Below, piece by piece: positions 10,370 to 35,973 of a stretch of DNA of 64,000 nucleotides. The notes below the pieces were generated by a model, which ran no database searches, had not been told where the DNA came from, and was given only the letters and a program-made list of their open reading frames with translations. Made by a program: the position numbers and the translations under genes. The first letter of the stretch is position 1, and each line of letters opens with the position of its first letter. Source of the DNA: a virus. Location of the stretch: the IMG/VR virus record IMGVR_UViG_3300047494_000061, positions 5,801 to 69,800 of that record. The stretch is one strand, 5' to 3'.

Positions 10370-10377
10370 TTCGATTC

Positions 10378-13051: not shown

Positions 13052-13834
13052 CTAGTTGAGAATGTTGTAGTTGTAGACCGCCGTATTGCCGGTGCCGCAA
13101 GTGGCGCTGAAACTCGTGCCAGGGGTGCTTGCGGTGATGTACGGATTCCCGACGGCCGCCGTGCCCGACTTCCAACTGATGACTACATCGGAAGTTGCCA
13201 AGTAGAGCGCGTTTGCGACCACGATGGTGCCACCAGAGGTGCAAGTGAATGTGCCTTTTCGTGAACCGCTGTTCAGCACTACGCCGCCGCTAGTGGCCGC
13301 CGTGGGCAAAGTACCAGCATTCCCCGATGCGATCGGCAGGGTCTGGGTAAGCACGTTCGACCCGGAAGGAGTCGGAAACCAGTTCGCTTCCCCGTTGCTC
13401 GTCGCTCCAACCCACACCTGATAGTAGGAAGCGTAAGGCACGGGAGTGCAGGTCCATGTGATGCTTCCTGCAGCCGTGGTCGTCACCAGAGCCGACTCGG
13501 TACTCGGCAGGGCAATGCCGCCGTACCAGTCGACCGCGACGCATTTGGCGTAGTTCGCGCCAGCCGCGACGGTGCCGGTCGTGTAAGATGGAGCGCCGGT
13601 GACGGCGGCGGCAGGACCAGGAGTCATGCCTACTTGAAGGCTGTCCAAAAATCCTAGGCCGCCGATGAAGACGTTCTTCGCGAAGTAGGAATTGTTTGAC
13701 CCGTCCTGCCCGCCTACTTGGTAGATCGACGGGGAGTTCTGGAATCCGGGATTGATCTGCTGTGGAGTTTGAGCGACCGCACCAACCGTTGCCAGTGCGA
13801 GCACCGATGCGAAGAGTGATTTCATTACTTTCAT
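13052..13834 (-). CDS. putative capsid decoration protein with Sec signal peptide
   Basis: Immediately after MCP; begins MKVMKSLFASVLALATVGAVA|QTPQ; Thr/Gly-rich beta domains with 4 Cys. Confidence 0.55.
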   Translation of the reverse strand: MKVMKSLFASVLALATVGAVAQTPQQINPGFQNSPSIYQVGGQDGSNNSYFAKNVFIGGLGFLDSLQVGMTPGPAAAVTGAPSYTTGTVAAGANYAKCVAVDWYGGIALPSTESALVTTTAAGSITWTCTPVPYASYYQVWVGATSNGEANWFPTPSGSNVLTQTLPIASGNAGTLPTAATSGGVVLNSGSRKGTFTCTSGGTIVVANALYLATSDVVISWKSGTAAVGNPYITASTPGTSFSATCGTGNTAVYNYNILN

Positions 13835-13875
13835 TTCCGTTTCCTCTCTTGGCTTCACGTCTCTTAGCGTTCTTA

Positions 13876-13910: not shown

Positions 13911-15185
13911 TTAGTAGCCGGTCGGCTCAGGCAGGCCCGAGATGTACGACTGGGATTTGAGATTGACCACGTAATACTGAACAGTGTCGATCATAAAGCT
14001 CGACATTACGCTGGTCGGCTGTCCGTTGGTGCCGATCTGCCGGAAGATGGTCCTGCCCTGGTCGTTCAACCAGAACGGCGCATCGCCCCAGCGAATCTTT
14101 TCCCAAGTCTCCAGATTCAGGAAGTCCACGCGAGAGATATTGCCGTGGATGTTCTTGACGAAGATATTGCCAGCCACCTTCATATCGCCAGTGGTCAACA
14201 GGTCGAAGCCGGTGCCCACGGTGCCATCGTTCTTCCAGAAGTTCGTCAGCGACAGGCCCGACTGTTCGTATTGAGCTTGCTGGCCGGGGGCCATGTGCAT
14301 CTTGAACTTGCCAGCCTTGACCGCATCCTCGCCGATGGAGTGGATGATCTGATCCAGCCCCAGACGGAAGAGCGGAGGAGTCAGCGACGATCCCGCCGCC
14401 GCCACGCCGTTCGACAGGATGAAGTTGTTGGCCGCCTGAGTCCTGTCAATGCCGATGGTCATGCCGACCGGGGAATTGTTGTTCCAGTAGGGCAGGCCAT
14501 AGACGAACTGGGGAGCGCCGGAGACGAGGTTGTTGAACCGCAGAACGGTTCCGCCGGCATAAGCGTTGTCAACAGTGAGGATCTGGGTCGCGCCGATTGT
14601 CTTCTGCACCGCAGTGACGTTCGAAGTTCCCACATACGCCAAGCCGTTGTAGACGTCGATGTTGTTGCCCTTGTCGAACAGGCGCGCGCCGAAATCAGCC
14701 GAAGACAGGGTATAGGTTCCCCCAGCGCCCGCAGTCGTTGCGGTGATGGTTCCCCAGTATCCTGTGCCGTCGCCGCAGCAAAGGCTTTCATCGCGGGTCA
14801 GTTTTAGTTGCTCGGTCGCGCCGCGCATGGTCTTGTCGACCACGTTGGCGACGGCCAGCATCGAACTGGTAGTGGTGATATCCGCCAACTCGGTCCAGCC
14901 GACAGGAACGGCCCAGGAGACGGGCTGCATGACGCCGTACTGCCAATCGGGAGAACCCGGAGCCGGGTAGTTTGCCGCCGCGTCCAGCGCGATCGCCGAC
15001 CGGATGCCGGGGATTGCGTCTTGGAACGTGACGCGGTACGAATGCTCGGAAACTTTGGTAGCCTTGCCGCTGGAGGAAATGAGCGCGTCCAGCTTGGAGT
15101 CCTTTTCAACCAGCAGTTGCGGCTGGTTCCAGACGCCTTCGAGCATGACCGCCGCCGCACCAACACTTGCCTGGAGAGCTGCCAT
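13911..15185 (-). CDS. major capsid protein (HK97 fold, about 424 aa)
   Basis: Start MAALQASVG after GAAAGGA RBS; follows portal and scaffold; RDESLCCGDGTG and TIGIDRT resemble conserved MCP motifs (..GDGTG.., GI.R). Confidence 0.75.
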   Translation of the reverse strand: MAALQASVGAAAVMLEGVWNQPQLLVEKDSKLDALISSSGKATKVSEHSYRVTFQDAIPGIRSAIALDAAANYPAPGSPDWQYGVMQPVSWAVPVGWTELADITTTSSMLAVANVVDKTMRGATEQLKLTRDESLCCGDGTGYWGTITATTAGAGGTYTLSSADFGARLFDKGNNIDVYNGLAYVGTSNVTAVQKTIGATQILTVDNAYAGGTVLRFNNLVSGAPQFVYGLPYWNNNSPVGMTIGIDRTQAANNFILSNGVAAAGSSLTPPLFRLGLDQIIHSIGEDAVKAGKFKMHMAPGQQAQYEQSGLSLTNFWKNDGTVGTGFDLLTTGDMKVAGNIFVKNIHGNISRVDFLNLETWEKIRWGDAPFWLNDQGRTIFRQIGTNGQPTSVMSSFMIDTVQYYVVNLKSQSYISGLPEPTGY

Positions 15186-16729: not shown

Positions 16730-16744
16730 ACGCAGAGTAGCAGA
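16730..16744 (-). promoter_or_regulatory. putative late promoter, copy 3 (near-leaderless scaffold mRNA)
   Basis: Same 15-mer; the -10 hexamer is 8 nt from ATG 16725 and there is no RBS. Confidence 0.75.
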
Positions 16745-16752
16745 TCGCACTT

Positions 16753-20453: not shown

Positions 20454-20476
20454 ATCGGGCATCCCCCTGAATCGTT

Positions 20477-20491
20477 ACGCAGAGTAGCAGA
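20477..20491 (-). promoter_or_regulatory. putative late promoter, copy 4
   Basis: Same 15-mer, directly after a terminator and upstream of the head operon. Confidence 0.8.
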
Positions 20492-20494
20492 TCG

Positions 20495-20530
20495 AAAAAG
20501 CAAAGGGCGCGAACCTTTCGGCCCACGCCC
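20495..20530 (-). terminator. rho-independent terminator after lysis operon
   Basis: GGGCGTGGGCC-GAAA-GGTTCGCGCCC followed by TTTGCTTTTT. Confidence 0.7.
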
Positions 20531-20601
20531 CTCTCTTGCCTGCTCTGGCTGCCAGCTTGCGCTAGCGATTCTCCGCGACCTCCTCTCTTCTCCGAATTGG
20601 A

Positions 20602-21129
20602 CTACGAACCGATAACCGATCCCGAAAATGGAATTCGAGGATTCCGATAGTTCTCGACGAGTTGATTGGCGTATCTTCGGACTCCTGCGGGCCACGTGTT
20701 GTCGTGCGGGATGTGGCCGCAATTCCAGATCGCGCCGCAGGACTCGATATCTTTCGGGTCGAACTTCTGAAACTGCCGCTTCATGAACGTCACCGAGCAC
20801 ATGAACGCAATGTCCAATTGACCCATCTCGTCTGGAGTCGTACCCGAAGGGCAATTGCAAAGCATGATCTGGAAGGGGCCGTAGGAACATGCGCCGGCCG
20901 ATCCGAACTTTTCAAGAAGAGGGGCTTGCGTGGGAGATTGGGCGTACATTCCGCCAACATCGAATGCGGGCTCGTGCCGGGGAGTGCAGTTTTCGCCGAA
21001 GGATGATTCGTTGCCGGTGAACGCCCATAGAAGCGTGGCGGCATCCACAAGCGCGGGAAGGGCTACCTGGAGAGAGGGAGCCCACTGCGCACACAATCCT
21101 GCTACTTGCTCTGGCGGGTAGCTCGTCAT
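20602..21129 (-). CDS. endolysin, lysozyme-like / lytic transglycosylase fold
   Basis: Catalytic NESS motif, RHEP, SYGPFQIM (GxxQ) and AIWNCG (AYNxG-like). Confidence 0.7.
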   Translation of the reverse strand: MTSYPPEQVAGLCAQWAPSLQVALPALVDAATLLWAFTGNESSFGENCTPRHEPAFDVGGMYAQSPTQAPLLEKFGSAGACSYGPFQIMLCNCPSGTTPDEMGQLDIAFMCSVTFMKRQFQKFDPKDIESCGAIWNCGHIPHDNTWPAGVRRYANQLVENYRNPRIPFSGSVIGS

Positions 21130-21135
21130 TGCCCT

Positions 21136-22047
21136 TTACGCCGCTGGCACCTTGAACACGTTGAGGATAGCGACGACGGCGGTATTGATGACTCCCAAGT
21201 CGGTCTGAGTCAAAGACGAAGCCCCAAGCTGCTGCGCTACCGCCTGGGCGTCGCCATTCAAGGCGGCGATCACGATGGCGGCCTTTTGCGCTCCGGTCAA
21301 TCCTGGGGTTGATGCTGCGGTGCCGACGGCGGTCGCTGCGGTGGTTTCGACGGTGACCGCGGTGTTGGTCCATTTTTCGATCAGCGCAGTGATCGCGGGG
21401 CCGAAGGCGACGGCCTCGGCGGCTTGGACTGCGGGGCTGGCTTCGATGGCTCCGGCGACGCCGATGATCTTGGCAAGCACTTTCCCGATGTTTTTGAGAA
21501 ACGATTCAAATACGTTGGTGCTCATGGCGATATGCTCCGGGACTGCGGGTTGGGCCGCTGCGGGAGCGGGTTGGATTACCGGCGCCGCTTTCGCGACGTT
21601 CGATTCGGTCGTGTAGGCGATCGGCTTTTCGCTCAGAGGCTCGACGGATAGAGCAGAAACCGGGCTAGGATCGATCACTACGGGTTCGACGACGCGTTGG
21701 ACGGGAATCGGCGTAGAAGCCGCTTTCTTGGCGTCTGCAAGCTTTTGAGCTGTGTTTGCCGCATTGGCCGCATCCGCCAGAGCGGACGCCTGCTCTTTGC
21801 TGTACCACTTTCCGCCGGCAGGCCACTGAAATGGATGAGCCGCGTCTTCATGGTCCTGTCCCGCAGGATTCGAAGGGATGGCTGCCGGAGCAGCCATAGA
21901 AGCGGAATGAAGTGCGGAGATCGGTGCGGGAGGTGCTGCGGCTGGTGCTGCGGGAAGATGTTCCGGCTGAACCGGAGGATGCACGGCGGGAACCGCCGCG
22001 TGGGCCGCTGCGAATTTCATTCGCTGATCCTGAAAGAAGTTGCTCAT
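21136..22047 (-). CDS. lysis-cluster protein; Pro/Ala-rich N-terminus and holin-like amphipathic C-terminus
   Basis: Between holin and endolysin; possible internal start at ATG 21525 with GGAG RBS. Confidence 0.45.
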   Translation of the reverse strand: MSNFFQDQRMKFAAAHAAVPAVHPPVQPEHLPAAPAAAPPAPISALHSASMAAPAAIPSNPAGQDHEDAAHPFQWPAGGKWYSKEQASALADAANAANTAQKLADAKKAASTPIPVQRVVEPVVIDPSPVSALSVEPLSEKPIAYTTESNVAKAAPVIQPAPAAAQPAVPEHIAMSTNVFESFLKNIGKVLAKIIGVAGAIEASPAVQAAEAVAFGPAITALIEKWTNTAVTVETTAATAVGTAASTPGLTGAQKAAIVIAALNGDAQAVAQQLGASSLTQTDLGVINTAVVAILNVFKVPAA

Positions 22048-22394
22048 TTAGGTCCTGCGTCCATCTGCTTCGTGCCGATGTACCACTTGCCGATGGTCGA
22101 CAGGAAGGTCACAAGCAGCGCTATCACGGCGGAAACGTTTTGAAGCTTGGGGTGTCCCGCGCCGAAATCGAAGCCTTTGATGGCCAGCGCAAGACCCAAA
22201 CCGTTGACTCCGAAAAAGTTCAGAATCCCCTGCGCGGTTGTTTTCCAGTTGGGGCCGAGCAGGTTGTACATCAGCACTTCGATCAAGGGCGCAGGCTGTT
22301 CGACGGGAGTGACGACGGCATCGACGGCGGGAGTCGGCTCTGGATGTTTGAGCGGGTCGGGCGGGAGGGGAGGGGCTGCTTCGGTATCCGGCAT
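22044..22394 (-). CDS. putative holin
   Basis: AGGAG RBS; NWKTT motif and two hydrophobic helices; adjacent to the endolysin. Confidence 0.6.
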   Translation of the reverse strand: MPDTEAAPPLPPDPLKHPEPTPAVDAVVTPVEQPAPLIEVLMYNLLGPNWKTTAQGILNFFGVNGLGLALAIKGFDFGAGHPKLQNVSAVIALLVTFLSTIGKWYIGTKQMDAGPK

Positions 22395-22404
22395 AACGAT
22401 TCTC

Positions 22405-22863
22405 CTAGTTCGCTGGTATCGTGCTGTCGCCTGCTGTAGTACTTGATTGTACAACCGACGAGTTTACGGCCTTGATATAAGACTTGCAGCCCTGCACCAA
22501 ATAGGGAATCAGCGCGGCAAGAATTGTGGCCAGAATCGCGAGAAACGCCAGCCTCATCACGTTCCGCTCTTTCCCCGCGCTGTTCTTGCTTTGGATGTCG
22601 GTCACCTTGTCGCACACTTCGATCAGTGTTTTTCGCATCTCCGGAAGCAGCATCGCGTAAGGCGCAAACGTAATTCTGAGGTCTCTCACTTCATCGGAAG
22701 TCACTTTCATCTCCTGACGGTTTCGGATATCCCGCGCAATCACATCTTGTTTAGATGCCTCCAGTTCGACCTCAATCCTCTCGACGCGAGCGTCTAGGTC
22801 GTCGAGTTTGTTTCCGAGGGACTCCCCGTGGATGTCCTCTTCCCTGCGGCGCGGTGGCGTCAT
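22405..22863 (-). CDS. coiled-coil membrane protein with C-terminal TM (lysis cluster)
   Basis: Heptad-rich, then RLAFLAILATILAALIPYLV. Confidence 0.55.
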   Translation of the reverse strand: MTPPRRREEDIHGESLGNKLDDLDARVERIEVELEASKQDVIARDIRNRQEMKVTSDEVRDLRITFAPYAMLLPEMRKTLIEVCDKVTDIQSKNSAGKERNVMRLAFLAILATILAALIPYLVQGCKSYIKAVNSSVVQSSTTAGDSTIPAN

Positions 22864-22872
22864 CTGGCTCCT

Positions 22873-24237
22873 CTATTGGCCGAACATGCCAAGGCTGACC
22901 GCCAGACCCGTTGGAACCGTCCCCGCCGCGTACTGGTACGCCCCGATGTACCAGTAGCCATTGGCCCCCCGCGTGTTTCCGTCCATGTCCATGTTGTAAG
23001 GCGACGAGAGCGAAGTCCCGTTCTGGAACGTCGTCGCGCCTGCCGAGGTCAGCCGGAAATTGGCCGCCAGTTGGTTGCTGGATCCGGTGTTGATGAACTG
23101 CGTCCCGGACGTGTAGCAGATCGTGTGCGCGCCGGAGTCTTTGTCTCCGCAGATATCGTAGGCGTTGTAGTCGGGGCTGGGAGGAGTGGCCACAAGATAC
23201 ATCTGCTGCATCACGTTGTTCTTGAACGCGCCGGAGGATGTGTTGACGTTGGTGAAATCCAGCCAGCCGGGAGAGAAGTCGCCCGTCCCGTCGTTCTCGT
23301 AAACGTTGTTGTAGACGAAAACGTTGGTGGCTTTGGTGCCGACCGACTTGAAGGTCATCAGTTGGCCGCCCGAATGGAAATAGACGTTTCCGTAGACGTA
23401 GACCCCAACCTGTCCGCCGCCGTCGAAGAACATTCCGTCGTTGGGCGAGCTCCAGATCGTGTTGTAGCGCCATGTCAGGTTGTTGACCGCCGTCGATCCG
23501 CCGTTGTCGTAGAGGATGTCCTCGTGCTGGATGTTGTCGTTGTGGGTGCAGCAGATGAAGGAATTCTGGATGACCGCATTCACCCAGTTCGCCGCGCGGA
23601 GAGCTTCGCCCCACTGGTGAACGTAGACGTTGGTGTAGGTGAATCCCGTCCCGCCGTAGGGAAGGTTGATCCCGCTGGCCCCGTTGCCCGTGCAGGACTG
23701 CGAAGGAACGCAGGCAGGGCCGTAGACCTCGACATTCTGGATGGTGTAGTTATTATTGCCCGCGCCGTCGTCGATGCCATCGCAGCTTGTCTCGGTCGAG
23801 CAGTGGAGCAGGATTCCGTAGGCGGTCGGAGTCTGCGGATTGCCGAACCTTCCGTCGATGGTCACGTAGGCGATGCCATTCAACCTGAATCCCGCGAAGC
23901 CCGACCAGTTCAGCAGAATCACTTGCGAGTCGAAAGCCGAGTTCCATCCCGCAGCCGCCACCGGCACGGAGTCGCTGGAGGTCACGCGCTTGATGAAAAG
24001 CGGGTTGCCGGACGTGCAGGTCTTCACGACGGTCAGCGTGGTCGAGTAGGTTCCGCCGGCCAGCCAAAGAGTGTCTCCGCAGGACATTGCGGAGAAGTTG
24101 ACCTGATTCATCTCGTTCCAGGCATTTGTCCAACTGCTGCCGTTGTTTGACCCGGAAGCGCCCTTCGCGACGTAGAAGTTGCTGGCCCATGCGCACGGCG
24201 CGATCGCCGCCAAGAGAGCTAAGATGATCGCCTTCAT
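22873..24237 (-). CDS. secreted right-handed beta-helix (pectin-lyase-like) protein
   Basis: Signal peptide MKAIILALLAAIAPCAWA; FYVAKGASGSNNGSSWTNAW start; Asn-ladder repeats (YNNV, YGNV); C-terminal DMDGNTR..YIGAYQY. Confidence 0.7.
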   Translation of the reverse strand: MKAIILALLAAIAPCAWASNFYVAKGASGSNNGSSWTNAWNEMNQVNFSAMSCGDTLWLAGGTYSTTLTVVKTCTSGNPLFIKRVTSSDSVPVAAAGWNSAFDSQVILLNWSGFAGFRLNGIAYVTIDGRFGNPQTPTAYGILLHCSTETSCDGIDDGAGNNNYTIQNVEVYGPACVPSQSCTGNGASGINLPYGGTGFTYTNVYVHQWGEALRAANWVNAVIQNSFICCTHNDNIQHEDILYDNGGSTAVNNLTWRYNTIWSSPNDGMFFDGGGQVGVYVYGNVYFHSGGQLMTFKSVGTKATNVFVYNNVYENDGTGDFSPGWLDFTNVNTSSGAFKNNVMQQMYLVATPPSPDYNAYDICGDKDSGAHTICYTSGTQFINTGSSNQLAANFRLTSAGATTFQNGTSLSSPYNMDMDGNTRGANGYWYIGAYQYAAGTVPTGLAVSLGMFGQ

Positions 24238-24590
24238 TGGGCCACTCCCGTCAGTCCGGTTGGAGGCGGAGGCGCGACCGTCACGCTCACGCAGTTGGAT
24301 TGATGCGACACGATCCCGTTGACCACCGCCGTCACCACATAGGCGTAAGTCCCGCCGACTGGGGGAGTGTCGGTGTAGGTGGTCTCCGTCACGTTGTCGG
24401 CGAGGCGGTCGAAGTGAGGTTTATTCGCGCAGGTTCCATTGGCGCGATGGATGTCGAATGTCGCTTCGCCGGAGTAGTCCCACGTCAGGATGGCTTGCCG
24501 GGTAGTCTGGCACTTCGCCGCGAGTCCCGCCAGCAAGAGCGCTCCGAGCATCGAGAGAATGCTGCTTTTGAGTATCGTTTGGCAAGACAT
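24234..24590 (-). CDS. secreted fibronectin type III domain protein
   Basis: Hydrophobic N-terminus; LTWD...TTYTD...TYAYVVTAV...SN..PPPPTGL is an Fn3 signature. Confidence 0.7.
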   Translation of the reverse strand: MSCQTILKSSILSMLGALLLAGLAAKCQTTRQAILTWDYSGEATFDIHRANGTCANKPHFDRLADNVTETTYTDTPPVGGTYAYVVTAVVNGIVSHQSNCVSVTVAPPPPTGLTGVAQ

Positions 24591-24598
24591 ATACGCAC

Positions 24599-27500
24599 CT
24601 AGTTGATGATTTCAAATGTGTAGCACTCTGGATTAGTGGTTAAAGTGGGAAGGGTGAGAGTGAAACTCGTTCCGCCCGTGATCGCCGACACGATTGGCGT
24701 TTGCGTGGCCACGGTGTTGCAAGTCTGGCTCAAAAGAGTTCCTTCGTAAGGCGCGAGCGTCACGAGGATCGTGGAATTTGCCGTGACGGCCGAGTCGTTG
24801 ATCGTGCATGTTCCCGCCGACGCCGACACCGAGCAGCTAAAAGCCCCAGCGGTTGCAGCGGAGCAGGACACCACCGAGGGATTGGCCGCGGTGCCGTTCG
24901 AACTGCATCGGGTCGATGTCTGGTAATGGACGGCGGTAAAATTGTTGTTGCCGTCCACCGTGATGCCTGTCGTGCCGTTGACCTTGAAGTATCCATAAGA
25001 ACTGGTTGGAGTTCCGCTGTTGTAGTTATAGCCAAAGACCGCCGAATTATCGGTCGAGTTCGCTACCCCTAGATTGAATTGGTAGTTAGATCCGGACGGC
25101 AGGGACGAATTAAGGAAATTAGCAAAGCTTTGCGTTCCCGCCGTCGTGTTGGAATCGTTGACCGTGATGCACTTCGATCCGCTGTTATTGCAGTTGACCG
25201 AGAACGCTTCGGGCGTTCCTCCCGTGCCTACCGTAAGGTTGCCGCCCTGCACGTTCACCGCCGCCGTGAAGGTCGCGCCGTTCAGCGACGCGAGAGCAGT
25301 CAGCAGTTTGCCCGAGTCCTGAATCTGGCCGCCAGTTCCGGTGAACGTCACCACATCGCCCGAGACGGACGTCACAGGTCCAGTGGTAAGCCCCGCCCCG
25401 GATCCGGCGACGGTTGCCGCCTGAACGACTCCTCCGGCTCCAGTGGCCAGCGCCGCGATGTTTGATCCGGTTCCTACGAGGCTGAGCGCGAAATTCGTGT
25501 AGACGTTCCCGCTCGGATCGACTTGCAGCGCGTTCGCGTGGCCAGCGATGCCAAACTCCGCATAATTAGTTCCGCCCTGAGTGAAGGAGATTTCGGCGGC
25601 ATTGCCCGAAGAATTGGCCATCCCCACATACATCGCTTCCGTGCCTCCGGAGAGGTTCGGAGCGTAGAACTTCGCCACAGTCCCGCCAGTGGCGTTGTTG
25701 TCGGTGAAGACCGCAGGGGTCTGTCCGCCCTGGGTGTACGTGAAGGTCGCCGTCGATCCCGGCACGGTCAAGAGCACCGCTCCGGTGCATCCGTTGCCGC
25801 CGTTGACGACCGAGACCGCGGTGACGATTCCGCCCGCCGCCGTGACCTGCGCGATGGGGAACGTCGAGCACGATCCTCCCGTCAGGGTGATATTGCTGGT
25901 GCCGTTCGTCGCTCCGGTTCCCCCCGAAAGGATCGCGATGGCCGTCAGTTCGTTGTTCGCGTTGGTGTTGCCGTTGACGGTCAGGGTGTTCGACTGTGTG
26001 CCGCCGCCGACCAGTCCTTCGGAGATCGCGCTGATCGCCGCCGAGACGTTCAATGTCGGATTCAGATAAGAGCCGGTGCGGGTCATGTAGAGATCAACCG
26101 GGTTCGTCCCGTTGCCGAAAAACAGCCCCGGATTCGTGCCGTCCACTTTGGTTCCCAGCGCCACCCGGTAGTACGAATCGCCCGCGAAGCAGGTTGATCC
26201 CGTGACCGATGTGCAGTTCTGGCCCGCGAACAACAGTCCCGCGTTGCCGGAGGTTCCGTTCACGAACGCTTGATAAGCGGGCGCTCCGTTTGAGGAGCTT
26301 GAGCTCGACGCGGAGATGACCGGCACCGTGCCGGATTCGGCGATGTTGAGCGGCCCCGAAATGCCTCCGCTAAACACCGGCGCGGCGGTGAATGTAGCTA
26401 CCCCGGTGAACAGGGATGTGGTTCCGACCGAGAGGCTTCCGGTGGTCGAGACGTTCCCATTCGCATTCTGTACTTGGAAGAATTCGGTGGAGCTTCCCGT
26501 AGTCGATGTGCCGATGCCGAAAGCGGTGTTGTCCCAAAGCCCTTTGTAGGTGTTCTGGAAACGCCACGCGAATCCTTGGGACGGCTTCGCCTCGAAAGTG
26601 AGGGTATTCGGCGTGATGGAAGTGTCGTTGAACAGCGCCAGCCTGCCGTCGATATTCACGCCGCCCGAGTTGTATTCCGTGCCCGCGATGTCGCCAGCCC
26701 AGTTGTTCCAATAGGTCGAAACATACGGCAAAGAGCCGTTGGCGATGATCGTCCGCACGTTCGAGTCCGGCTGGTTCCACGAGCTTCCCCAGAAGTCCAC
26801 CTGACCCACGCCGAAATTGCCATTCGAGTTGAATGTCCCGCCGACCGAGCCAAGCCAGAATCCGCCAACCTCCAGCGTCGGGCCTTGGTTGGTTCCCGTG
26901 CTGGTCAGGTTGCTGTAAGCCCCGGCGGGAACGACCCCGTTCACAACCAGAGTGGTCGCGCTGGTGACGTTCTTGACGTAGAAGACCTGAGAGAGTCCCG
27001 CGAAGTTGAGCGGCATTCCATCGAAAGGGGTGTCGTTGGCCGGAAATCCGCTGCTGTTCGGAGGATCGTACGGGAAAGCGACGAAGTTGCTGGTCGGGGT
27101 CAAGGTCAGAGTCGAGTTCGGGCTGCCGCCGTCGCTCGTCACGTAAATCTTCTGCGCAAGGATGCCGCCGCCCAGGTTCTGTTTTCCGCCCATGAACGAA
27201 ACGCTGTTGGCCGAGAGTCCCGCGACGTTCGAATAGCCAAAGTTTTGGTTGATCATCTCCACGCCGGAGAATCGAACGATGTCTCCGGTCTGCGAAAGAA
27301 GCACGTTGTCGGCGGGCGCTCCCATCGTGTTCTCGGTGCAGGACGTGGTTGGCGGGTAGTTCGAAACGCAGGCGTAGGTTCCCGGCTCGATCTGGAAATC
27401 ATCGAAAAACATCATCGCGGGGCCGGAATGGTTGTTGAACTGCTCTCCTGCCACTTGGGTTCCCATCGCGATTGACGAGTTATAAAAGTCGATGGCCCCG

Positions 27501-30355
27501 CCGCCGATGAAGTACCACTGGTCGACGTCCCCGGTCGAAGTCGAACCTGTGAACGAGTTGTAGAACAGCATCTCGGAAGTGTTGGTCGCGAGATCGCCGC
27601 CGTTGCGCCAGAACGAATTCAGCACGACGCTTTCGCGCGCCGATCCGCTGGTGTACGGGCAGTAGGTAGTGCCCGCAAACTCAGGGCCGCGCAGATAGTC
27701 GATGACCACGTCGTCCATGAAGAAGTGGTCGAAGCTGCATATCTGGATGCCCTGCCCGAAGTACGAGCGAAAGTTTGGATCGTAGAAATGGAGATGCTGG
27801 ATCGAGCCGCCGTAGTTGTGGTTCTGCTCGTTGCGGAGAGAGGTCGTCGATCCGGCGTAAAAGATTGCGTTCTGCATCCCTTGCGCGGTAAAGGGCGCAG
27901 ACCACGTTCCTGTAAAGCGCGGAGAGACCTGGCCGGTTGCGAGAACGGTGCAGGCTCCCAAAGTGGTCGTAAAGGTCGCGGCGGTGGAACTTCCGCCAAG
28001 CTGCCCCGCGCCGATGGAGAATGTGGGAGCGGAAGTGTATCCCGCACCGGGGGTGTACGCGATTGTGTAGGCCGTCGAAGATGTCGCGGTGATGGTCAGC
28101 GTGGCGGCGGTTGTGCCGAATCCAGAAGAATCGGTGAAGGTGTAGGTTCCCGCCGTCATCCCGGTGGGCGCGGTGCCAACCGTGACCGATGCCAGTCCGT
28201 TGCCGGAATTCATGGTCAGAGTGTTGTTCGCCAAGCTGACTCCGGACGGGCTATAGGTGCAGACTCCCGAAAGATTCAATCCATAGATTGAGGCCACGGT
28301 GCCCGACTTCAGCCCGGTAAGCCAGTCCACGTTGTTTCCTAGTCCGTGGATGATGAGGTCGGTGGTGTTTTGCGAGTACCCGCCCGACATATAAGCGACA
28401 GGCTGGAGCGAGACCACGACGTTTCCGCAGTTGTTCGAGTTGGCCCCGGAGTTCAAAGGCGTGGACGATCCGCATCCGGTTGGCACGGTTCCCGGAACCG
28501 ACGCGATGAAGGTATTCTCCTGAAGCAGACCTCTTACTCCAATCCACTGCACGTTGGTCGCGGTTCCCGTGGTGCTGGGAGTCGAGCCGGTCACGTTGAA
28601 GGGCTGTGTGATGTAGCCGTTGACCCCGGTCAGCGCGACGGTCGTGCTTCCCGTATTGGTGATGGTCACGGTCGCGGTGCCGGACGCGGAGGTGTTGTTC
28701 ACCGCCAGCGTGTTTTGGAGTTTGCAATAGGTGTCGCTGCCGACAAGGTTGACCGGGCCGCGCACGATGGCCTGCGTTCCCCACTGGCAGTTCTGGGGCT
28801 TGGTCATGACCAGATCGACCGGAGTTAGAAGCGCTGCGCATTGGTTCGTCCCGCCGCCCGCAGGATTCGACGCGGCGCAGAAGTTGTTCAATGCCGCACC
28901 ATAGTCCGTGCCGCCATTCAGATAGTCTTCCCAAACGTAGACTTGCCGGGAAGTCGCGCCGAGCCAATTCGTCGCGGCCGTCAGCGCGGTTGACGAGTTC
29001 CATGTGTTTCCCGAGTTGTATGTCAGGTTGGGAGCGATGGTTTCGTCGCCTCCGCCGTTGCCGATCACAAGATTGTTTGCGGTGAGGGCGCTGGTCAGAT
29101 GCGTCACCACTGCCGCGTTGGCGGTCGGAAACCGGATCGTCCACCAGTTTCCCGGCGCGGAAGAAGAGTCCGAATACACAAAGCTAGCCCAGCCTGGAGG
29201 GATGGTGGAAGAGCCGCCCGTTCCCGATCCGTCGATTTTGTCCGCCGCGTTCGCCTGAAGAGTGTCCGTTCCGCCGTTGAGGTTTTGGGTCACAAAGGCG
29301 AAGTTCGATCCAAAGCTTCCGCTGATCTGCGGCAGAGTGAGAAGCGCGTTCGACGCGGATGTTTCGAGGATGTAGCTCAGCCGGTCGGAATACACCAGCG
29401 AATAGTTCGATCCTTGCGCGTTGACGGGAACGCCGCTAAGGGCGCAGGTCGGGTCCACCGCTGCCGATCCGGTGACGTTGAATCCGCAATTGTAGAATCC
29501 GTTGACCGAAGGCGACGTGACCAGGTTCATCGTCGAGGAGCCTTCCGTCACCAGCAAAGAGTGGGCCGTGGGGGAAGCGATGCCCGTGCCGCCGCTTGAA
29601 GGCGTGACCAGACCGCCTCCTCCTCCGCTGATGGTGTTGCATCCGAATCCCGTCCCGGTCGTCCATGTGAGGGCGTTCGCCGCGCCGGAGCAGGATGGAA
29701 CGGTCAGCCATGAAGGAGTGGTCGTGGCCGCGCCGAAGATCGTGTTGGCGGTTTGCGACTTGAGTGTCGCCGTCACCGTGCCGGAAGTCGTGACTGGAGC
29801 GCTCGGCGTGGAAGACAACACCACTCCGTCTCCGGTGAAAGTTACGCTGCTGACCGAACCCGACCCTCCTCCGCCGCCAGACCCTACGCCGCACCCAAGG
29901 TTCCACAGGATTAGGTAGGTGGACGACGGATAGGGGCTTGGAAGCGCCGTCGCCGGGGTTGCCACTCTTCCCACGCATTGAGTCGTGGCGATGACGGGAT
30001 TGATCCCGAAGTCGTGACCGATCCCAAACGTTCCCACTTCCACAAAATCTCCAGCCGTGGGGGTGTTGTTGAGCTGGAGCGGAATGATGCCTTGGTTCGC
30101 GACGACAACGCTTCCGGTCGTGCCGATGGTCGATCCGGTCAGCGGGATGGATACGCCGATGATGCCAAACGCTTCGGTTCCCGCCGCTCGAACCGCGTTT
30201 CCCGCCGTGGTCAGCGTGGTCAGGGTGTACGCGGTGGTTCCCGTCGTGCCGTCGTTGGGGATGGGCGCCTGGTTCGCGACCGAGATGTTGCTGACGGTGG
30301 TGGACTGGCCGAAAGCCGCAGTCGCCGCAAGCAGGAGTATTCCGAAGATTTTCAT
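24599..30355 (-). CDS. giant fibre/adhesin-like protein (about 1918 aa) with Sec signal peptide
   Basis: ATG 30355 overlaps the upstream TAA; MKIFGILLLAATAAFG|QSTT; Thr/Gly/Ser-rich with GGTG fibre repeats, a central beta-helix-like region and many Cys. Confidence 0.7.
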   Translation of the reverse strand: MKIFGILLLAATAAFGQSTTVSNISVANQAPIPNDGTTGTTAYTLTTLTTAGNAVRAAGTEAFGIIGVSIPLTGSTIGTTGSVVVANQGIIPLQLNNTPTAGDFVEVGTFGIGHDFGINPVIATTQCVGRVATPATALPSPYPSSTYLILWNLGCGVGSGGGGGSGSVSSVTFTGDGVVLSSTPSAPVTTSGTVTATLKSQTANTIFGAATTTPSWLTVPSCSGAANALTWTTGTGFGCNTISGGGGGLVTPSSGGTGIASPTAHSLLVTEGSSTMNLVTSPSVNGFYNCGFNVTGSAAVDPTCALSGVPVNAQGSNYSLVYSDRLSYILETSASNALLTLPQISGSFGSNFAFVTQNLNGGTDTLQANAADKIDGSGTGGSSTIPPGWASFVYSDSSSAPGNWWTIRFPTANAAVVTHLTSALTANNLVIGNGGGDETIAPNLTYNSGNTWNSSTALTAATNWLGATSRQVYVWEDYLNGGTDYGAALNNFCAASNPAGGGTNQCAALLTPVDLVMTKPQNCQWGTQAIVRGPVNLVGSDTYCKLQNTLAVNNTSASGTATVTITNTGSTTVALTGVNGYITQPFNVTGSTPSTTGTATNVQWIGVRGLLQENTFIASVPGTVPTGCGSSTPLNSGANSNNCGNVVVSLQPVAYMSGGYSQNTTDLIIHGLGNNVDWLTGLKSGTVASIYGLNLSGVCTYSPSGVSLANNTLTMNSGNGLASVTVGTAPTGMTAGTYTFTDSSGFGTTAATLTITATSSTAYTIAYTPGAGYTSAPTFSIGAGQLGGSSTAATFTTTLGACTVLATGQVSPRFTGTWSAPFTAQGMQNAIFYAGSTTSLRNEQNHNYGGSIQHLHFYDPNFRSYFGQGIQICSFDHFFMDDVVIDYLRGPEFAGTTYCPYTSGSARESVVLNSFWRNGGDLATNTSEMLFYNSFTGSTSTGDVDQWYFIGGGAIDFYNSSIAMGTQVAGEQFNNHSGPAMMFFDDFQIEPGTYACVSNYPPTTSCTENTMGAPADNVLLSQTGDIVRFSGVEMINQNFGYSNVAGLSANSVSFMGGKQNLGGGILAQKIYVTSDGGSPNSTLTLTPTSNFVAFPYDPPNSSGFPANDTPFDGMPLNFAGLSQVFYVKNVTSATTLVVNGVVPAGAYSNLTSTGTNQGPTLEVGGFWLGSVGGTFNSNGNFGVGQVDFWGSSWNQPDSNVRTIIANGSLPYVSTYWNNWAGDIAGTEYNSGGVNIDGRLALFNDTSITPNTLTFEAKPSQGFAWRFQNTYKGLWDNTAFGIGTSTTGSSTEFFQVQNANGNVSTTGSLSVGTTSLFTGVATFTAAPVFSGGISGPLNIAESGTVPVISASSSSSSNGAPAYQAFVNGTSGNAGLLFAGQNCTSVTGSTCFAGDSYYRVALGTKVDGTNPGLFFGNGTNPVDLYMTRTGSYLNPTLNVSAAISAISEGLVGGGTQSNTLTVNGNTNANNELTAIAILSGGTGATNGTSNITLTGGSCSTFPIAQVTAAGGIVTAVSVVNGGNGCTGAVLLTVPGSTATFTYTQGGQTPAVFTDNNATGGTVAKFYAPNLSGGTEAMYVGMANSSGNAAEISFTQGGTNYAEFGIAGHANALQVDPSGNVYTNFALSLVGTGSNIAALATGAGGVVQAATVAGSGAGLTTGPVTSVSGDVVTFTGTGGQIQDSGKLLTALASLNGATFTAAVNVQGGNLTVGTGGTPEAFSVNCNNSGSKCITVNDSNTTAGTQSFANFLNSSLPSGSNYQFNLGVANSTDNSAVFGYNYNSGTPTSSYGYFKVNGTTGITVDGNNNFTAVHYQTSTRCSSNGTAANPSVVSCSAATAGAFSCSVSASAGTCTINDSAVTANSTILVTLAPYEGTLLSQTCNTVATQTPIVSAITGGTSFTLTLPTLTTNPECYTFEIIN

Positions 30356-32433
30356 TACTTGATGTCCACCCATAGGTTCGAGACGCAAGTGAAGAACGTC
30401 GATCCTGTCCCGCCCGACGTGTTGCTATAGGTCGAGCCGTTGACTGAGCAGGCTAGTCCTCCGACGTTCGTGTTGCCGCTGCAAAAGGTAGGCCCGTTCG
30501 CGCCGCCGATCTGAGTGCATTCGGTCGCGGTCACTCGCCCGGTCGGGCCAATGATCGCGCCGAGAGTTCCCAAAGCGGCTCCGTTGGTCGCGGCAGGATA
30601 AAAATACATTCCCCCCGCCCCGCTCCCTTTTGCGTTGGCGAAGTCGATTTCTCCAACAGAGTGGGTGGCGTTCCAAAACATACAAAAACCATTCGTGAGC
30701 GGGCAGGCCCCGATGGAAAAGTTCTGCCCAAACAACACGCCTTGGCTATTCGCGTCCACTTGCACCAGGTTCGCGGAGGTGGCACCGATCAACGGAATCA
30801 AAGCTGTATTGGGGTTGGCAGAGGATGCCAGTTCCCCTCCGTTCGCAAGGAGCACGGAGCCAGTTGGCAGTCCAGTGCCGAACGGCGGAATGGTGGCATT
30901 GTTGCCGACAATCACATTCCCTTGGTCGACGCTAAAATTCTGATTTCCGTCCGCGGAATCAAGCAAATGCAGCGTTTGATCGGCTGGACCTTCGTCGATA
31001 GACGCGGTGTGTACCACGTTGGATCCGTCGCGCCAGTTCAACGCGATGTACTGCGAACCGGAGTTTGCCGTGGTATCGAACGACCCGATCTGGATCGCGT
31101 AGCCGTTGACCTCGCCGTCGTCGAACAGGATGCCGTAAGACCACTTGCCCGTGCCGACGTTCTTCCCGAGATGGATCTGTCCAAAAGACGACCCGTGCAA
31201 GCTGATATTGCCATTGATAAACAGACATGCCGCGTTGGTCGTTGGCTGGGAGGAGTTGCAGTCCAGTTCGTTGAACAGGGTTACGTTGCTGTAGGTATGA
31301 CCCGGATTGATGACGTTCGCACTATACACATCGCCGTCACCTAGGTTGGTATTGATGCCCCAAATGTTCGCGTTGTTCGTCGCCGCGTTGCCTTGTCCGT
31401 AAAACCCTACACAGTAGGTTTGATAGCCTTGGCAGCGAGTAAACGCTCCGATAGCTGTACCCTGCGTCAGCGTCGATCCGGTTGGGATGGTCTGCCCTAC
31501 ACCGAAGGCGATGTCGTAGGTGATTCCGGCCCCGGACAGAACGTCCGACGCCAAGTATCCATTTTCAGTGAATACATTTCCCAGATACGGCGTGGTCGGG
31601 TTGAAAGCATGGGATAAATTGCTGGCGATCGGCCCAGTCATATTCCCGCCGGCCAGAGGGAGATACAACCCAAGGCCGCCGTTGCCGCTGCTTACCGAGT
31701 TCACCACGCAGGTTCCAGACTGCGGCTGGGCGAATCCGAAACTGTAGCTATATTGGCTTGAGGCGACTGTGATGACCGAGCCCACGTATGAGATTTCGTT
31801 CCCATATTGGTCGTAGCAGGCTGAGACGAAGTTCGGCAGGGTGAAGCCGTAAGTTCCGTAGTTCATCGTCACCAGAGTCTGATTGACAAACGTGATGCCT
31901 GGATTGACGCTTCCCGGACCGCCGCCCATCGAAGGGATGCACGGACCTCCATCGATCGACAAGCATCCGGTAATATTCAGGTTCCTGTATTGAGCGTCCT
32001 GCGGATTCGGAGGAGGCTGGGAGCAGGTGATCGGCTGCTGGGTGTTGATATTCCAAAGCGTTTGCGTCGACGCCACCTGGTAGCACTGCTGAGTCCCGCT
32101 TGGCGCGCCCGCCACGATATAGGTGACGGCGTACATGCTCTGACCGGTCGTGCCGTTGCAGGTGATGACGTCGTTGGGGATGATATTGGAATTGATCTGG
32201 CCTTGCGCGTTCGACTGCAGCAGGACTGCGGTCTGGACAATGACGTTGTATCCCGCCACGGAGGACGGAGATGGGCAATTCTGAAGCTGGATCTTCATCC
32301 CGGCATAGGGCGTCGGGGTTCCAAGTATTTGATTCAGATTGCCGGTGATGGGTATTGTTGGAGGCGCTTGGGCGAGGGCCGCGGCGCTAATCGCCAGCGA
32401 CAAAAATGTGAAAATGCGACCAAATCGCACCAT
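30355..32433 (-). CDS. tail-fibre-like protein (692 aa) with Sec signal peptide
   Basis: MVRFGRIFTFLSLAISAAALA|QAPP; contains YLPLAGGNMTGPI, a classic fibre repeat; Cys-rich. Confidence 0.7.
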   Translation of the reverse strand: MVRFGRIFTFLSLAISAAALAQAPPTIPITGNLNQILGTPTPYAGMKIQLQNCPSPSSVAGYNVIVQTAVLLQSNAQGQINSNIIPNDVITCNGTTGQSMYAVTYIVAGAPSGTQQCYQVASTQTLWNINTQQPITCSQPPPNPQDAQYRNLNITGCLSIDGGPCIPSMGGGPGSVNPGITFVNQTLVTMNYGTYGFTLPNFVSACYDQYGNEISYVGSVITVASSQYSYSFGFAQPQSGTCVVNSVSSGNGGLGLYLPLAGGNMTGPIASNLSHAFNPTTPYLGNVFTENGYLASDVLSGAGITYDIAFGVGQTIPTGSTLTQGTAIGAFTRCQGYQTYCVGFYGQGNAATNNANIWGINTNLGDGDVYSANVINPGHTYSNVTLFNELDCNSSQPTTNAACLFINGNISLHGSSFGQIHLGKNVGTGKWSYGILFDDGEVNGYAIQIGSFDTTANSGSQYIALNWRDGSNVVHTASIDEGPADQTLHLLDSADGNQNFSVDQGNVIVGNNATIPPFGTGLPTGSVLLANGGELASSANPNTALIPLIGATSANLVQVDANSQGVLFGQNFSIGACPLTNGFCMFWNATHSVGEIDFANAKGSGAGGMYFYPAATNGAALGTLGAIIGPTGRVTATECTQIGGANGPTFCSGNTNVGGLACSVNGSTYSNTSGGTGSTFFTCVSNLWVDIK

Positions 32434-32459
32434 GCCGATCTATGCCCCCTGCGAACGTT

Positions 32460-32474
32460 ACGCAGAGTAGCAGA
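32460..32474 (-). promoter_or_regulatory. putative late promoter, copy 5 (drives fibre/lysis operon)
   Basis: Same 15-mer upstream of the AGGGGG RBS of the gene starting at 32433. Confidence 0.8.
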
Positions 32475-32494
32475 TCAAAACAGGGCTTCAGGGT

Positions 32495-32659
32495 TTAGAA
32501 GCGGTGAATCCCGCCGAAGAAATAGAACAGGATCAGAAGCAGCACGACGATCCCTAAAATGCTGGTCCCGCCCTGGGCTCCCCAGCGATTGTAGCCGTAC
32601 CATCCGCCGCCGCCGCCGAACACCAGAAAAATCACTACGAGAATGACGATCAGTTCCAT
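32495..32659 (-). CDS. DUF3309-like small membrane protein
   Basis: MELIVILVVIFLVFGGGGGWYGYNRWG...GIVVLLLILFYFFG: two TMs with a Gly-rich loop. Confidence 0.65.
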   Translation of the reverse strand: MELIVILVVIFLVFGGGGGWYGYNRWGAQGGTSILGIVVLLLILFYFFGGIHRF

Positions 32660-32689
32660 GCTGGTTTGCCTCTGCACTGACTATACGCG

Positions 32690-33850: not shown

Positions 33851-34261
33851 CTACTTCTTGGCCTTCTGCTGAACCGGAGGAAGGGCGGGCTGTCCTTTGG
33901 CCGCTTCGGGATCGTGGTCGAGGAATCCTTGGTTGGGGTCGAACCAGACTTTTCCGTCCATGTTGTGCGCGTGGATGATCTGCTTGGCCGACTCTTTGAC
34001 CTCGTTCATCTTGATGTCCCGCTGCGCCTGGGCATCGGTCAGGTCTTTGTATTCGGGAAGCTTCTTAGCGGCCTCGTCGAGCTTGGCTCCCGCGTCCTGA
34101 ATCCGTTTGTAGACTTGCCGCAGGTCGTACTGGTCGGAAGTGATTTTCAACACTTCGTCTTTGGTCAGTTCGAGGTTGAACTGGGTGAGCGGAGACGCCG
34201 GGTTGGGCGTCTGGGCGAGTGCCGACGATCCGGCGAGAACGAATGCGAGTAAAACCTTCAT
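33851..34261 (-). CDS. secreted/periplasmic helical protein
   Basis: MKVLLAFVLAGSSALA|QTP signal peptide; AGGAG RBS. Confidence 0.65.
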   Translation of the reverse strand: MKVLLAFVLAGSSALAQTPNPASPLTQFNLELTKDEVLKITSDQYDLRQVYKRIQDAGAKLDEAAKKLPEYKDLTDAQAQRDIKMNEVKESAKQIIHAHNMDGKVWFDPNQGFLDHDPEAAKGQPALPPVQQKAKK

Positions 34262-35549: not shown

Positions 35550-35846
35550 CTATAGTTTGGCGGCAGGCTCAATAGACGACGAGGCATTGGCAGCACCATC
35601 GCTTGTCGCCGTACGGGACGGTTTGGTGATCGGCATGAGGGTCATCTTGGGTCGCGACAGGCTCGGATGCTTCGTTATATCCTCCGCGTCCTCGGTTCTG
35701 GTGCTCCAATTCGTTCCGCAAGGGTTGCACCGGATGTAGGTTGAGCGAAGCACTCTCGGTCGGCCGCAAAACGGGCAGGGCGGCTGGGTTCCTGGTTCGT
35801 CGAGGCGCTGTTGCCGGGTCAGAGACATGTACGTTAAGGTGTCCAT
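35550..35846 (-). CDS. zinc-ribbon protein overlapping the RHH gene
   Basis: GGAG RBS; CPFCG...CNPCG. Confidence 0.45.
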   Translation of the reverse strand: MDTLTYMSLTRQQRLDEPGTQPPCPFCGRPRVLRSTYIRCNPCGTNWSTRTEDAEDITKHPSLSRPKMTLMPITKPSRTATSDGAANASSSIEPAAKL

Positions 35847-35973
35847 CGGTCTTCTCCAATCGTTCTAGGGCTGCTGTTGCGATCCAACTAGTTCGAGTGA
35901 CTCCATAAGCTTCAGCCTGGGCATCAATCCGAGCCAGTAGATCAGGATGTATCCGCATCTGAATCGTCGGCAT
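35569..35973 (-). CDS. ribbon-helix-helix (CopG/Arc-like) DNA-binding protein
   Basis: MPTIQMRIHPDLLARIDAQAEAYGVTRTSWIATAALERL is a canonical RHH pattern. Confidence 0.75.
   Translation of the reverse strand: MPTIQMRIHPDLLARIDAQAEAYGVTRTSWIATAALERLEKTDGHLNVHVSDPATAPRRTRNPAALPVLRPTESASLNLHPVQPLRNELEHQNRGRGGYNEASEPVATQDDPHADHQTVPYGDKRWCCQCLVVY

Follow-up and report, generated by a model that had tools for sequence, protein, structure and literature searches.

Organization of the cassette

The virus record IMGVR_UViG_3300047494_000061 (IMG/VR) comprises 69,800 bases and is 100% complete by CheckV. The stretch analysed here, bases 5801-69800 of that record (64,000 nucleotides, nt; hereafter the window), has a guanine plus cytosine content of approximately 58%. 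On its minus strand, four translationally coupled genes encoding 692, 1918, 118 and 454 amino acids (aa), here called genes 1 to 4, form a cassette just ahead of a group of lysis-type genes (Table 1). All four proteins begin with a predicted Sec-type signal peptide. Receptor-binding proteins and depolymerases set the host range of phages, and the cytoplasm is the assumed place of their folding and assembly. This report deals with the origin, the predicted export and the possible virion attachment of the four cassette proteins.

The start of gene 2 overlaps the stop of gene 1 as TAATG, and gene 4 overlaps gene 3 as ATGA. These overlaps, together with Shine-Dalgarno-like sites (AGGGGG, GGTGGA and AGGTG), support the start codons of the cassette genes. 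The TTG start listed for gene 2 would give a protein of 1929 aa.

A 16-nt motif, ATCTGCTACTCTGCGT, heads the cassette. At up to two mismatches it occurs five times in the window, always on the minus strand, against 0.06 copies expected, and none of 100 shuffles reached five copies. Every copy sits just upstream of a gene block. Besides the two copies in Table 1, it was found at 4407-4422, 10355-10370 and 16730-16745. Four copies are followed by AACG, then a purine-rich site and then a start codon 4-26 nt away, and in two cases the motif lies directly against a hairpin with a T run. The first-pass annotation had described a 15-bp promoter common to the gene blocks; the repeat is real, and we infer its promoter role. 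It could serve as a promoter for a phage-encoded polymerase, with the transcription start included. The motif was absent from all 126 loci searched and from the related phages, which indicates that it is specific to the window phage. An intrinsic-terminator-like hairpin directly precedes the next motif copy downstream. The motif ahead of gene 1 and this terminator therefore delimit one unit of four signal-peptide genes and four further genes, and these data strongly indicate that the cassette and the lysis genes form one late operon. Just upstream of the cassette motif, a gene for a two-helix DUF3309 membrane protein was observed at 32495-32662 on the minus strand (23.7 bits; cutoff 22.3).

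Signal peptides and composition of the cassette proteins

A home-made, strict rule was used to recognise signal peptides: a basic n-region, an uncharged hydrophobic core of 10-18 residues and small residues at -3/-1, all within the first ~35 residues. A first heuristic had been dropped as too lax, since 116 of 483 open reading frames (ORFs) passed it. Under the strict rule, all four cassette genes passed, compared with 13 of the 483 six-frame ORFs of at least 50 aa in the window. The 13 comprise six credible genes (the cassette four, 13052-13858 and 33851-34261), one DUF3309 gene and six ORFs that are probably non-coding. Cleavage is predicted at AALA|QAPP in gene 1, AAFG|QSTT in gene 2 and CAWA|SNFY in gene 4; for gene 3, either AGLA|AKCQ or AAKC|QTT is predicted. 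The hydrophobic, signal-peptide-like N-termini first noticed on four consecutive genes were thus confirmed.

The strict rule gives false negatives among homologues (78/119 and 80/139), and leaders were counted there relative to a conserved mature motif instead. In the gene 1 family, a conserved TGN-type motif lies within the first 90 residues in 95 matches. Three of these have fewer than 15 residues upstream of it; a hydrophobic leader was found in 91 of the other 92, and the leader of the 92nd is just under the threshold. In the gene 4 family, a mature NWYV-type motif was present in 112 of the 119 matches listed, two of them short at the 5' end, and a leader was found in all 110 relatives with enough upstream sequence. 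Column conservation is 0.41 in the leader and rises after the predicted site to 0.68 in the N-domain family of gene 1 (described below) and 0.79 in the beta-helix family of gene 4. The leaders of both families vary in sequence and keep the n/h/c pattern and the small -3/-1 residues. The homologues, therefore, do not start downstream of the hydrophobic segment: their leaders are present, and conservation begins at the cleavage site.

Cysteine makes up 1.85% of the signal-peptide proteins and 1.03% of the other proteins, in line with the many Cys residues remarked on earlier. The mature signal-peptide proteins contain 6-11% of D, E, K and R, compared with 21.8% elsewhere, and are rich in G, S, T and N. 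The data strongly indicate that Sec-type leaders are conserved across large families, and that this composition and the invariant Cys residues of the gene 1 N-domain are typical of extracytoplasmic proteins. Export of the cassette proteins, with folding and oxidation in the periplasm, appears well supported by these predicted features; from them we infer actual export, cleavage and disulfide formation. Signal peptides are reported for 5% of prophage carbohydrate-active enzymes (PMC13507307).

Gene 1 combines a conserved N-domain with exchangeable modules

Among 1.84 billion representatives, 140 homologues of gene 1 were found at E ≤ 1e-3. Most match residues ~10-165 alone, at the N-terminus of proteins of 216-1772 aa. 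This lineage-conserved part is here called the N-domain. Its four Cys residues, C53, C92, C117 and C137, are invariant in 36 aligned sequences. Six viral contigs of 64-69 kb, all syntenic with the window, encode the N-domain. Searches with this query gave no credible match in 401 sampled genomes of the bacterial class (two marginal matches with internal stops) and none in the five source genomes of five loci carrying a gene of the gene 4 family. The central domain of gene 1 had no match in the same 401 genomes.

Beyond the N-domain, the family members differ completely, that is, they carry exchangeable C-terminal modules. In a Pfam scan of 40 members, 12 matched at E ≤ 1e-4, eight of them above the curated cutoff. 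The C-terminal domains above the cutoff are the Gp53-like_C tail-fibre C-terminus, K1-lyase_C (three members), pectate-lyase-like domains (two members), NosD and GH43. Three further members gave no Pfam match, and the PHROG tail fibre and tail spike families match two members. The central and C-terminal parts of gene 1 are homologous to proteins lacking a signal peptide (P0247 and P0260), one with a T7 tail-fibre N-domain and a pectate-lyase-like domain and another with a Beta_helix domain; it is only through these two homologues that gene 1 itself is linked to known fibre or spike C-terminal families. For the four cassette proteins themselves, Pfam and PHROGs returned no family, even at lax thresholds, and the lambda-like tail fibre N-terminal domain PF08400 was not matched by whole gene 1 or by its 300-aa pieces at E ≤ 1 to 10; leads to such a domain came from fold comparisons only. 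The fibre hallmarks pointed out in the first-pass annotation hold: YLPLAGGNMTG lies at residues 257-267 of the 692-aa protein, and GGTG occurs at residues 255 and 1478 of gene 2. Overall, the sequences strongly indicate that gene 1 has the modularity of a tail fibre or tailspike.

AlphaFold2 modelled residues ~20-140 of gene 1 as a confident beta-sandwich (predicted local distance difference test, pLDDT, 83-95). The top four fold matches of the N-domain in VIA-align were the neck fibre of cyanophage A-1(L), the tail tips of Ur-lambda and Bxb1 and the neck of XM1, with Z values of 8.9, 8.3, 7.8 and 7.4 around the tool's caution line of ~8, each aligned from the first residues of the chain. A search of BFVD gave 14 matches at E ≤ 1e-3 (best 7e-6), named tail-fibre proteins included; at E 0.01 it also returned a lambda-like tail-fibre N-domain protein. 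The predicted N-domain fold thus bears a moderate resemblance to fibre-docking domains, to which the matches point instead of to the capsid-cement domains suggested at first.

Gene 4 encodes a putative beta-helix enzyme of probable host origin

The beta-helix proposed for the 454-aa protein was borne out. AlphaFold2 gave a confident right-handed beta-helix with a mean pLDDT of 91.9 and a predicted template modelling (pTM) score of 0.90. Foldseek found 25 matches in the PDB at E ≤ 1e-3, the nearest being GH136 lacto-N-biosidases, the PL9 pectate lyase Pel9A and PL6 alginate lyases, with template modelling (TM) scores to solved enzymes of 0.4-0.5. The protein belongs to no Pfam family; it has 166 homologues, and the family alignment contains invariant D, R, H and N columns.

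A scan of genome contigs yielded 163 stretches encoding gene 4 relatives, of which 77 loci were kept. The best relatives come from Acidobacteriaceae and Terriglobia assemblies, with up to 66% identity. Viral relatives were found by an alignment-based scan of viral contigs, where a single-protein scan had found nothing. No other cassette gene stands beside the gene 4 homologue in 117 loci, apart from the single gene 3 match given below. In seven of the eight bacterial loci scanned, the homologue lies inside a conserved cluster of the polysaccharide-synthesis type, with genes for glycosyltransferases, a methyltransferase, a FemAB/GNAT acyltransferase, a polysaccharide deacetylase and WsaF-type and Wzy-type proteins; the eighth (L044) has unrelated neighbours. 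A quick maximum-likelihood tree placed gene 4 in a clade of 100% support with two such chromosomal loci, inside Acidobacteriota sequences. The cellular homologues carry the same leaders.

Gene 4 is not a fibre. The data strongly indicate a host origin: its product appears to be a polysaccharide lyase- or hydrolase-like enzyme that the phage acquired, signal peptide included, from a polysaccharide-synthesis locus of a host. Approximately 16 of the 20 family members examined on viral contigs have a leader. On one 62-kb viral contig (L016, 10001-11215), a member starts at the mature motif without one.

The cassette is the variable region of the late genes

Every ORF of the window was compared with five related complete genomes. 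Between 2199 and 20462, every late gene is conserved in the five relatives across 70-100% of its length. The 923-, 803-, 509- and 447-aa proteins and a giant protein show end-to-end conservation, with identities among the relatives of 52-76% for the 923-aa protein and 45-67% for the 803-aa protein. In the region 20462-32433, the N-domain is the sole conserved part, and the cassette is the sole variable late region among the six genomes. The position of gene 1 is kept in six related genomes, with 20-25% of the protein conserved. The N-domain proteins of the relatives are 404-1542 aa long, and after them come other signal-peptide proteins and differing lysis genes. The best explanation is that this region is a hypervariable host-glycan cassette of this Acidobacteriota phage lineage. 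In relative L124, a 169-aa signal-peptide protein (14225-14734) looks by eye like a small outer-membrane beta-barrel and gave no Pfam match. IMG/VR classes relative G408 as a provirus and relative G409 as having direct terminal repeats.

Genes 2 and 3 and a further signal-peptide protein

Among the near-length homologues searched, gene 2 had a single partial one, also with a signal peptide. In 300-aa pieces, its C-terminus gave a sub-threshold Pfam match to K1-lyase_C (E 5.6e-4), and this C-terminus is 36% identical to that of the 268-aa signal-peptide protein of the late block. The nearest Atlas clusters of gene 2, obtained as language-model neighbours, are named 'Tail fiber family protein' (0.86), which we take as a lead only. 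Gene 2 has no N-domain. It is regarded as a giant fibre- or spike-like protein, a nature supported through homologues and fold matches. The description of the cassette products as fibre or adhesin proteins is supported for genes 1 and 2 on these grounds and fails for gene 4.

Gene 3 had no near-length homologue and no Pfam or PHROG family, with nothing at E ≤ 10 except a chance-level zinc-binding match. The Fn3 domain first ascribed to it found no match in Pfam. One 38%-identical match to gene 3 lies on viral contig L009, 4.5 kb from a beta-helix gene.

The 268-aa protein lies inside the conserved late block and has a sub-threshold K1-lyase_C match of its own. A signal-peptide homologue of 333 aa was found in relative G410 only, at the same position. 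Two of the six genomes thus have, within the conserved block, a protein made up of a signal peptide, a conserved N-terminal part and a variable C-terminal part.

Lysis-type genes of the unit

Four genes follow gene 4 in the same unit (Table 1), and three of them encode a C-terminal hydrophobic segment. The 152-aa protein has a weak match to the PHROG 'hemolysin' family (E 0.019), and an analogous gene was seen by eye in relative L120. No muralytic enzyme family was matched by any of the four genes in Pfam or PHROGs, at lax thresholds too. At the place of the putative endolysin gene, the relatives carry either a Phage_lysozyme gene (98.7 bits) or a Tlde1-domain gene. The claim that the cassette runs into holin and endolysin therefore leans on the relatives: the downstream genes and their hydrophobic segments are there, and a family match to either protein is lacking in the window. 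In relative L122, a 133-aa Tlde1_dom protein (9499-9900, 55.8 bits) lies among the lysis-type genes and may be the cell-wall enzyme of that relative.

Table 1. Coordinates of the cassette, its lysis-type genes and associated features in the window
Feature	Position	Strand	Description
Motif heading the cassette	32460-32475	-	16 nt, ATCTGCTACTCTGCGT; 26 nt upstream of the gene 1 start codon (ATG)
Gene 1	30355-32433	-	692 aa; predicted signal peptide, residues 1-21; tail-fibre/tailspike-type
N-domain of gene 1	31939-32370	-	residues 22-165; lineage-conserved; predicted beta-sandwich; invariant C53, C92, C117, C137
Gene 2	24599-30355	-	1918 aa from ATG (MKIFGILLL); predicted signal peptide, residues 1-16; giant fibre/spike-like
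Gene 3	24234-24590	-	118 aa; small, putatively secreted protein, possibly a beta-sandwich
Gene 4	22873-24237	-	454 aa; putatively secreted right-handed beta-helix enzyme, host-derived
152-aa coiled-coil protein	22405-22863	-	lysis-associated candidate; hydrophobic C-terminal transmembrane segment, residues 105-123
136-aa membrane protein	22044-22454	-	holin candidate; hydrophobic segment, residues 104-122; no family match
303-aa Ala/Pro-rich protein	21136-22047	-	C-terminal hydrophobic segment; no family match
175-aa Cys-rich protein	20602-21129	-	8 Cys; last in the unit; endolysin candidate on its position only
Terminator-like hairpin	20533-20502	-	closes the unit; 14-pair stem, 8 GC pairs, T run, fold -31.2 kcal/mol
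Next motif copy	20477-20492	-	16 nt; starts the conserved late block
268-aa signal-peptide protein	13052-13858	-	probable start MKVMKS at 13834; lies within the conserved late block

Source genome and other genes of the window

The record represents a new lineage of ~65-70-kb phages of Acidobacteriota, probably Terriglobia; it comes from an uncultured phage of soil Acidobacteria. The 692-, 803-, 923- and 454-aa proteins gave no tblastn match in 50,697 GenBank phage records. No tRNA gene was found in the 64-kb window. Among the 61 window ORFs scanned, no integrase family was detected; a match to the PHROG 'transcriptional repressor' family lies at 35569-35973. The minus-strand late genes gave almost no Pfam or PHROG matches, and sequence searches of the PDB returned nothing usable; consequently, the labels portal, capsid and tail attached to them in the first-pass annotation are not confirmed.

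The plus strand from 38 to 57 kb carries a replication and modification module that encodes DnaB, an SbcC-like ATPase, a PD-(D/E)XK nuclease, two DNA methyltransferases, HNH nucleases, GroES/GroEL, a PAPS reductase and a Mom-like protein. The GroES-like and GroEL-like chaperonins lie at 52670-54786, and the GroEL is 34-36% identical to GroELs of Flavobacterium, Enterococcus and other phages. The DNA-modification set (49615-52673 and 55789-59105) comprises a C5 methyltransferase, an N6/N4 methyltransferase, a PAPS-reductase-like gene and a Mom-like gene, with an HNH nuclease gene overlapping the 5' end of the N6/N4 methyltransferase gene.

Two long minus-strand ORFs, 3-2186 and 60382-63999, run off the two record ends. 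Joining the record into a circle yields two overlapping frames, and the homologous sequence in the five relatives is a single open frame of 3761-4324 aa. This indicates that a giant protein of ~3,900 aa is probably split by the record ends or by an assembly error. A 171-aa gene (4873-5388, minus strand) overlaps the stop of the 509-aa gene as ATGA; its product contains a GGTG motif, and its Ig-like C-terminus matches the PHROG 'head decoration' and 'virion structural protein' families. The homologue of the 509-aa protein in four of the five relatives runs on into a domain that by eye resembles a bacterial Ig-like domain.

Similar proteins in cultured Tunturi phages

Tunturi 1, a cultured podophage of Tunturiibacter, encodes gp12, gp13, gp14 and gp17, which begin with signal-peptide-like sequences and contain 10-32 Cys (PMC11924767). 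These four genes lie between a tail protein and the endolysin; gp14 is annotated as 'tail spike protein' and gp17 as 'virion structural protein'. In the siphophage Tunturi 4, gp113 and gp114 have signal-peptide-like N-termini too, and the mature start of gp114 resembles the gene 4 family. Tunturi 3, which has the same host strain as Tunturi 1, encodes ordinary fibres without signal peptides. Neither 'signal peptide' nor 'mass spectrometry' occurs in the main text of PMC11924767. Like the cassette products, the Tunturi 1 and 4 proteins are large, Cys-rich, signal-peptide-like at the N-terminus and encoded next to tail and lysis genes, with annotations of tail spike, virion structural or tail protein, and they have some modules in common with the N-domain family. 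They differ in belonging to unrelated lineages (no BLAST match of core proteins) and in having no N-domain.

Possible function of the cassette and alternative explanations

We believed that a composite model explains these observations best, and give it a probability of roughly 0.4: the gene 1 protein would dock on particles after the inner membrane has been breached, and the gene 4 protein would act as a free enzyme. As their sequences suggest, the cassette proteins would be exported by the host Sec system and trimmed by signal peptidase I. Folding and disulfide formation would take place in the periplasm, at the same time as capsid assembly in the cytoplasm. The co-transcribed lysis proteins would then breach the inner membrane, and cytoplasm and periplasm would mix. 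The gene 1 protein, and possibly that of gene 2, could at this point dock on finished particles through its N-domain as a receptor-binding depolymerase, which is the least supported step of the model. The gene 4 enzyme would stay free and strip exopolysaccharide around the lysing cell. Of the original proposal, in which all these proteins are exported, oxidised in the periplasm and docked at lysis, export and periplasmic oxidation are well supported, and docking is plausible for gene 1 only.

Several observations weigh against docking on the virion. Mature gene 4, like its cellular homologues, opens with the helix cap itself and so has no module for virion attachment. Genes 2 to 4 lack the N-domain and are not found in the five relatives. 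The prealbumin-like fold of the N-domain is a common one, the Z values lie around or under the line of ~8 below which the tool itself urges caution, and a Foldseek search of the N-domain against the PDB returned nothing at E ≤ 1e-3 (best E 0.02). The phage has other candidate surface proteins made without a signal peptide, the 171-aa GGTG/Ig-like gene being one example. In Tunturi 4, gp113 and gp114 directly follow a tail fibre without a signal peptide and its assembly protein, an arrangement that fits accessory exported enzymes. No fibre of a tailed phage is known to be exported, and our literature search found no tail fibre or tailspike with a signal peptide. An argument from even Cys numbers was rejected by its control: the number is even in 5/5 signal-peptide proteins and in 20/25 other proteins, so that Cys parity carries no information. 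Finally, virion disulfides can form without export, as is reported for phage Milano (PMC10811340).

We consider as a distinct possibility, if a doubtful one, an alternative in which all four proteins and their Tunturi analogues are exported and never attached, as free periplasmic or released depolymerases and lectins. They would pile up late, be freed at lysis and clear or mask host exopolysaccharide, and the phage would gain the escape of its progeny, less re-adsorption to debris, a block to superinfection or the stripping of neighbouring cells; the N-domain would serve oligomerisation or envelope anchoring. Gene 4, a cellular-type enzyme of polysaccharide loci with no docking module, fits this well, as do the co-transcription of the cassette with lysis genes, the further varied signal-peptide proteins in the cassettes of the relatives and the classical fibre without a signal peptide upstream of the signal-peptide proteins in Tunturi 4. 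Sec-exported lysis enzymes such as Lys44 of fOg44 and the signal-arrest-release (SAR) endolysins offer an established precedent (PMC6116005). However, free enzymes have no need of a lineage-specific N-module with a fibre-docking-like fold, and this module was not found in the bacterial genomes searched, that is, the 401 of the class and the five source genomes. The conserved late genes, moreover, hold no other depolymerase-type protein with a variable C-terminus.

The two remaining explanations are much less probable. The leaders might not be used for export at all, with cytoplasmic proteins assembled on the virion in the usual way and a leader that works as a helix for structure or membrane contact. 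Two observations agree with this: gene 1 has a fibre-type architecture, and AlphaFold2 models the leader as a helix. We think it improbable, given that the leaders vary in sequence yet keep the n/h/c pattern and small -3/-1 residues, that the cellular homologues of gene 4 share such leaders, and that the N-domain has invariant Cys and the proteins a composition like that of extracytoplasmic proteins. Still less credible is lysogenic conversion, or the expression of host-surface adhesins from a prophage, which had been offered as an alternative from the outset. The provirus classification of relative G408, the 'transcriptional repressor' match and the example of lambda Lom, a signal-peptide protein encoded between tail genes (PMC12309495), speak for it. 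It is weakened by the lack of an integrase among the ORFs scanned and by the place of the genes behind the late motif, in a terminator-bounded unit with lysis genes. The failure to find the N-domain in the 401 genomes of the class further implies that integrated copies are rare or absent there.

Beyond the window, tailed phages of Acidobacteria may use a two-compartment assembly, in which heads and tails are made in the cytoplasm and receptor-binding fibres and depolymerases are Sec-exported, trimmed and disulfide-bonded in the periplasm and attached only after the holin opens the inner membrane. This could be lineage-wide (at least 91 sequence clusters) and perhaps extend to Tunturi 1, 2 and 4, and we put it forward tentatively, as a proposal with odds somewhat short of even. 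If it is true, a phage could recruit modules straight from secreted glycan enzymes of its host, as gene 4 may illustrate. A whole family with tail-fibre architecture carries conserved export signals. Should these proteins sit on virions, they would represent a new assembly route, one that would explain the borrowing of disulfide-rich secreted host enzymes; should they be free, they would be 'exit' depolymerases of a new class, Sec-exported and linked to the lysis cassette. In both cases, the result bears on the entry and exit of viruses of the abundant, slime-producing soil Acidobacteria, on the reading of viral 'carbohydrate-active' genes in soil metagenomes and on the annotation of signal-peptide fibre proteins. 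The question is directly testable, since this feature is shared by phages in culture, namely Tunturi 1, 2 and 4.

Comparison with known systems

The Sec-exported and SAR endolysins (Lys44 of fOg44 and Lyz of P1) are late phage proteins that the host Sec system exports ahead of lysis and that build up outside the cytoplasm up to holin triggering (PMC6116005). The cassette genes are similarly linked to lysis genes. In contrast, these endolysins are small muralytic enzymes, whereas the large cassette proteins (454-1918 aa) are of the fibre or polysaccharide-enzyme type, and no muramidase domain was detected in them. Gene 4 resembles the AlgG/AlgE-type epimerases and the PL6 and PL9 lyases in its beta-helix fold, its signal peptide and the place of its cellular homologues in glycan clusters. 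It differs from the enzymes of exopolysaccharide loci in standing outside any Pfam family, in its low TM-scores and in being borne by a phage beside lysis genes.

Lambda Bor and T5 Llp are signal-peptide proteins encoded beside tail-fibre genes. Lambda Lom, encoded between tail genes, is another signal-peptide protein (PMC12309495). These morons are small outer-membrane proteins or lipoproteins that act in lysogens or in exclusion, whereas the cassette proteins are large, late and fibre- or enzyme-like. The pIII and pVIII proteins of filamentous phages are virion proteins with Sec signal peptides and are assembled outside the cytoplasm. Filamentous particles, however, are extruded through the envelope without lysis, whereas the window phage is a 70-kb phage of the lytic type with a lysis cassette.

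Known phage fibres have no signal peptide and are assembled in the cytoplasm. The N-domain family is built like P22 gp9, the K1-specific lyase and lambda Stf, in which a conserved N-module is followed by beta-helix or fibre modules that can be exchanged and by a C-terminal knob. What sets it apart from these tailspike and fibre depolymerases is that every full-length member has a predicted Sec-type signal peptide and the four invariant Cys residues.

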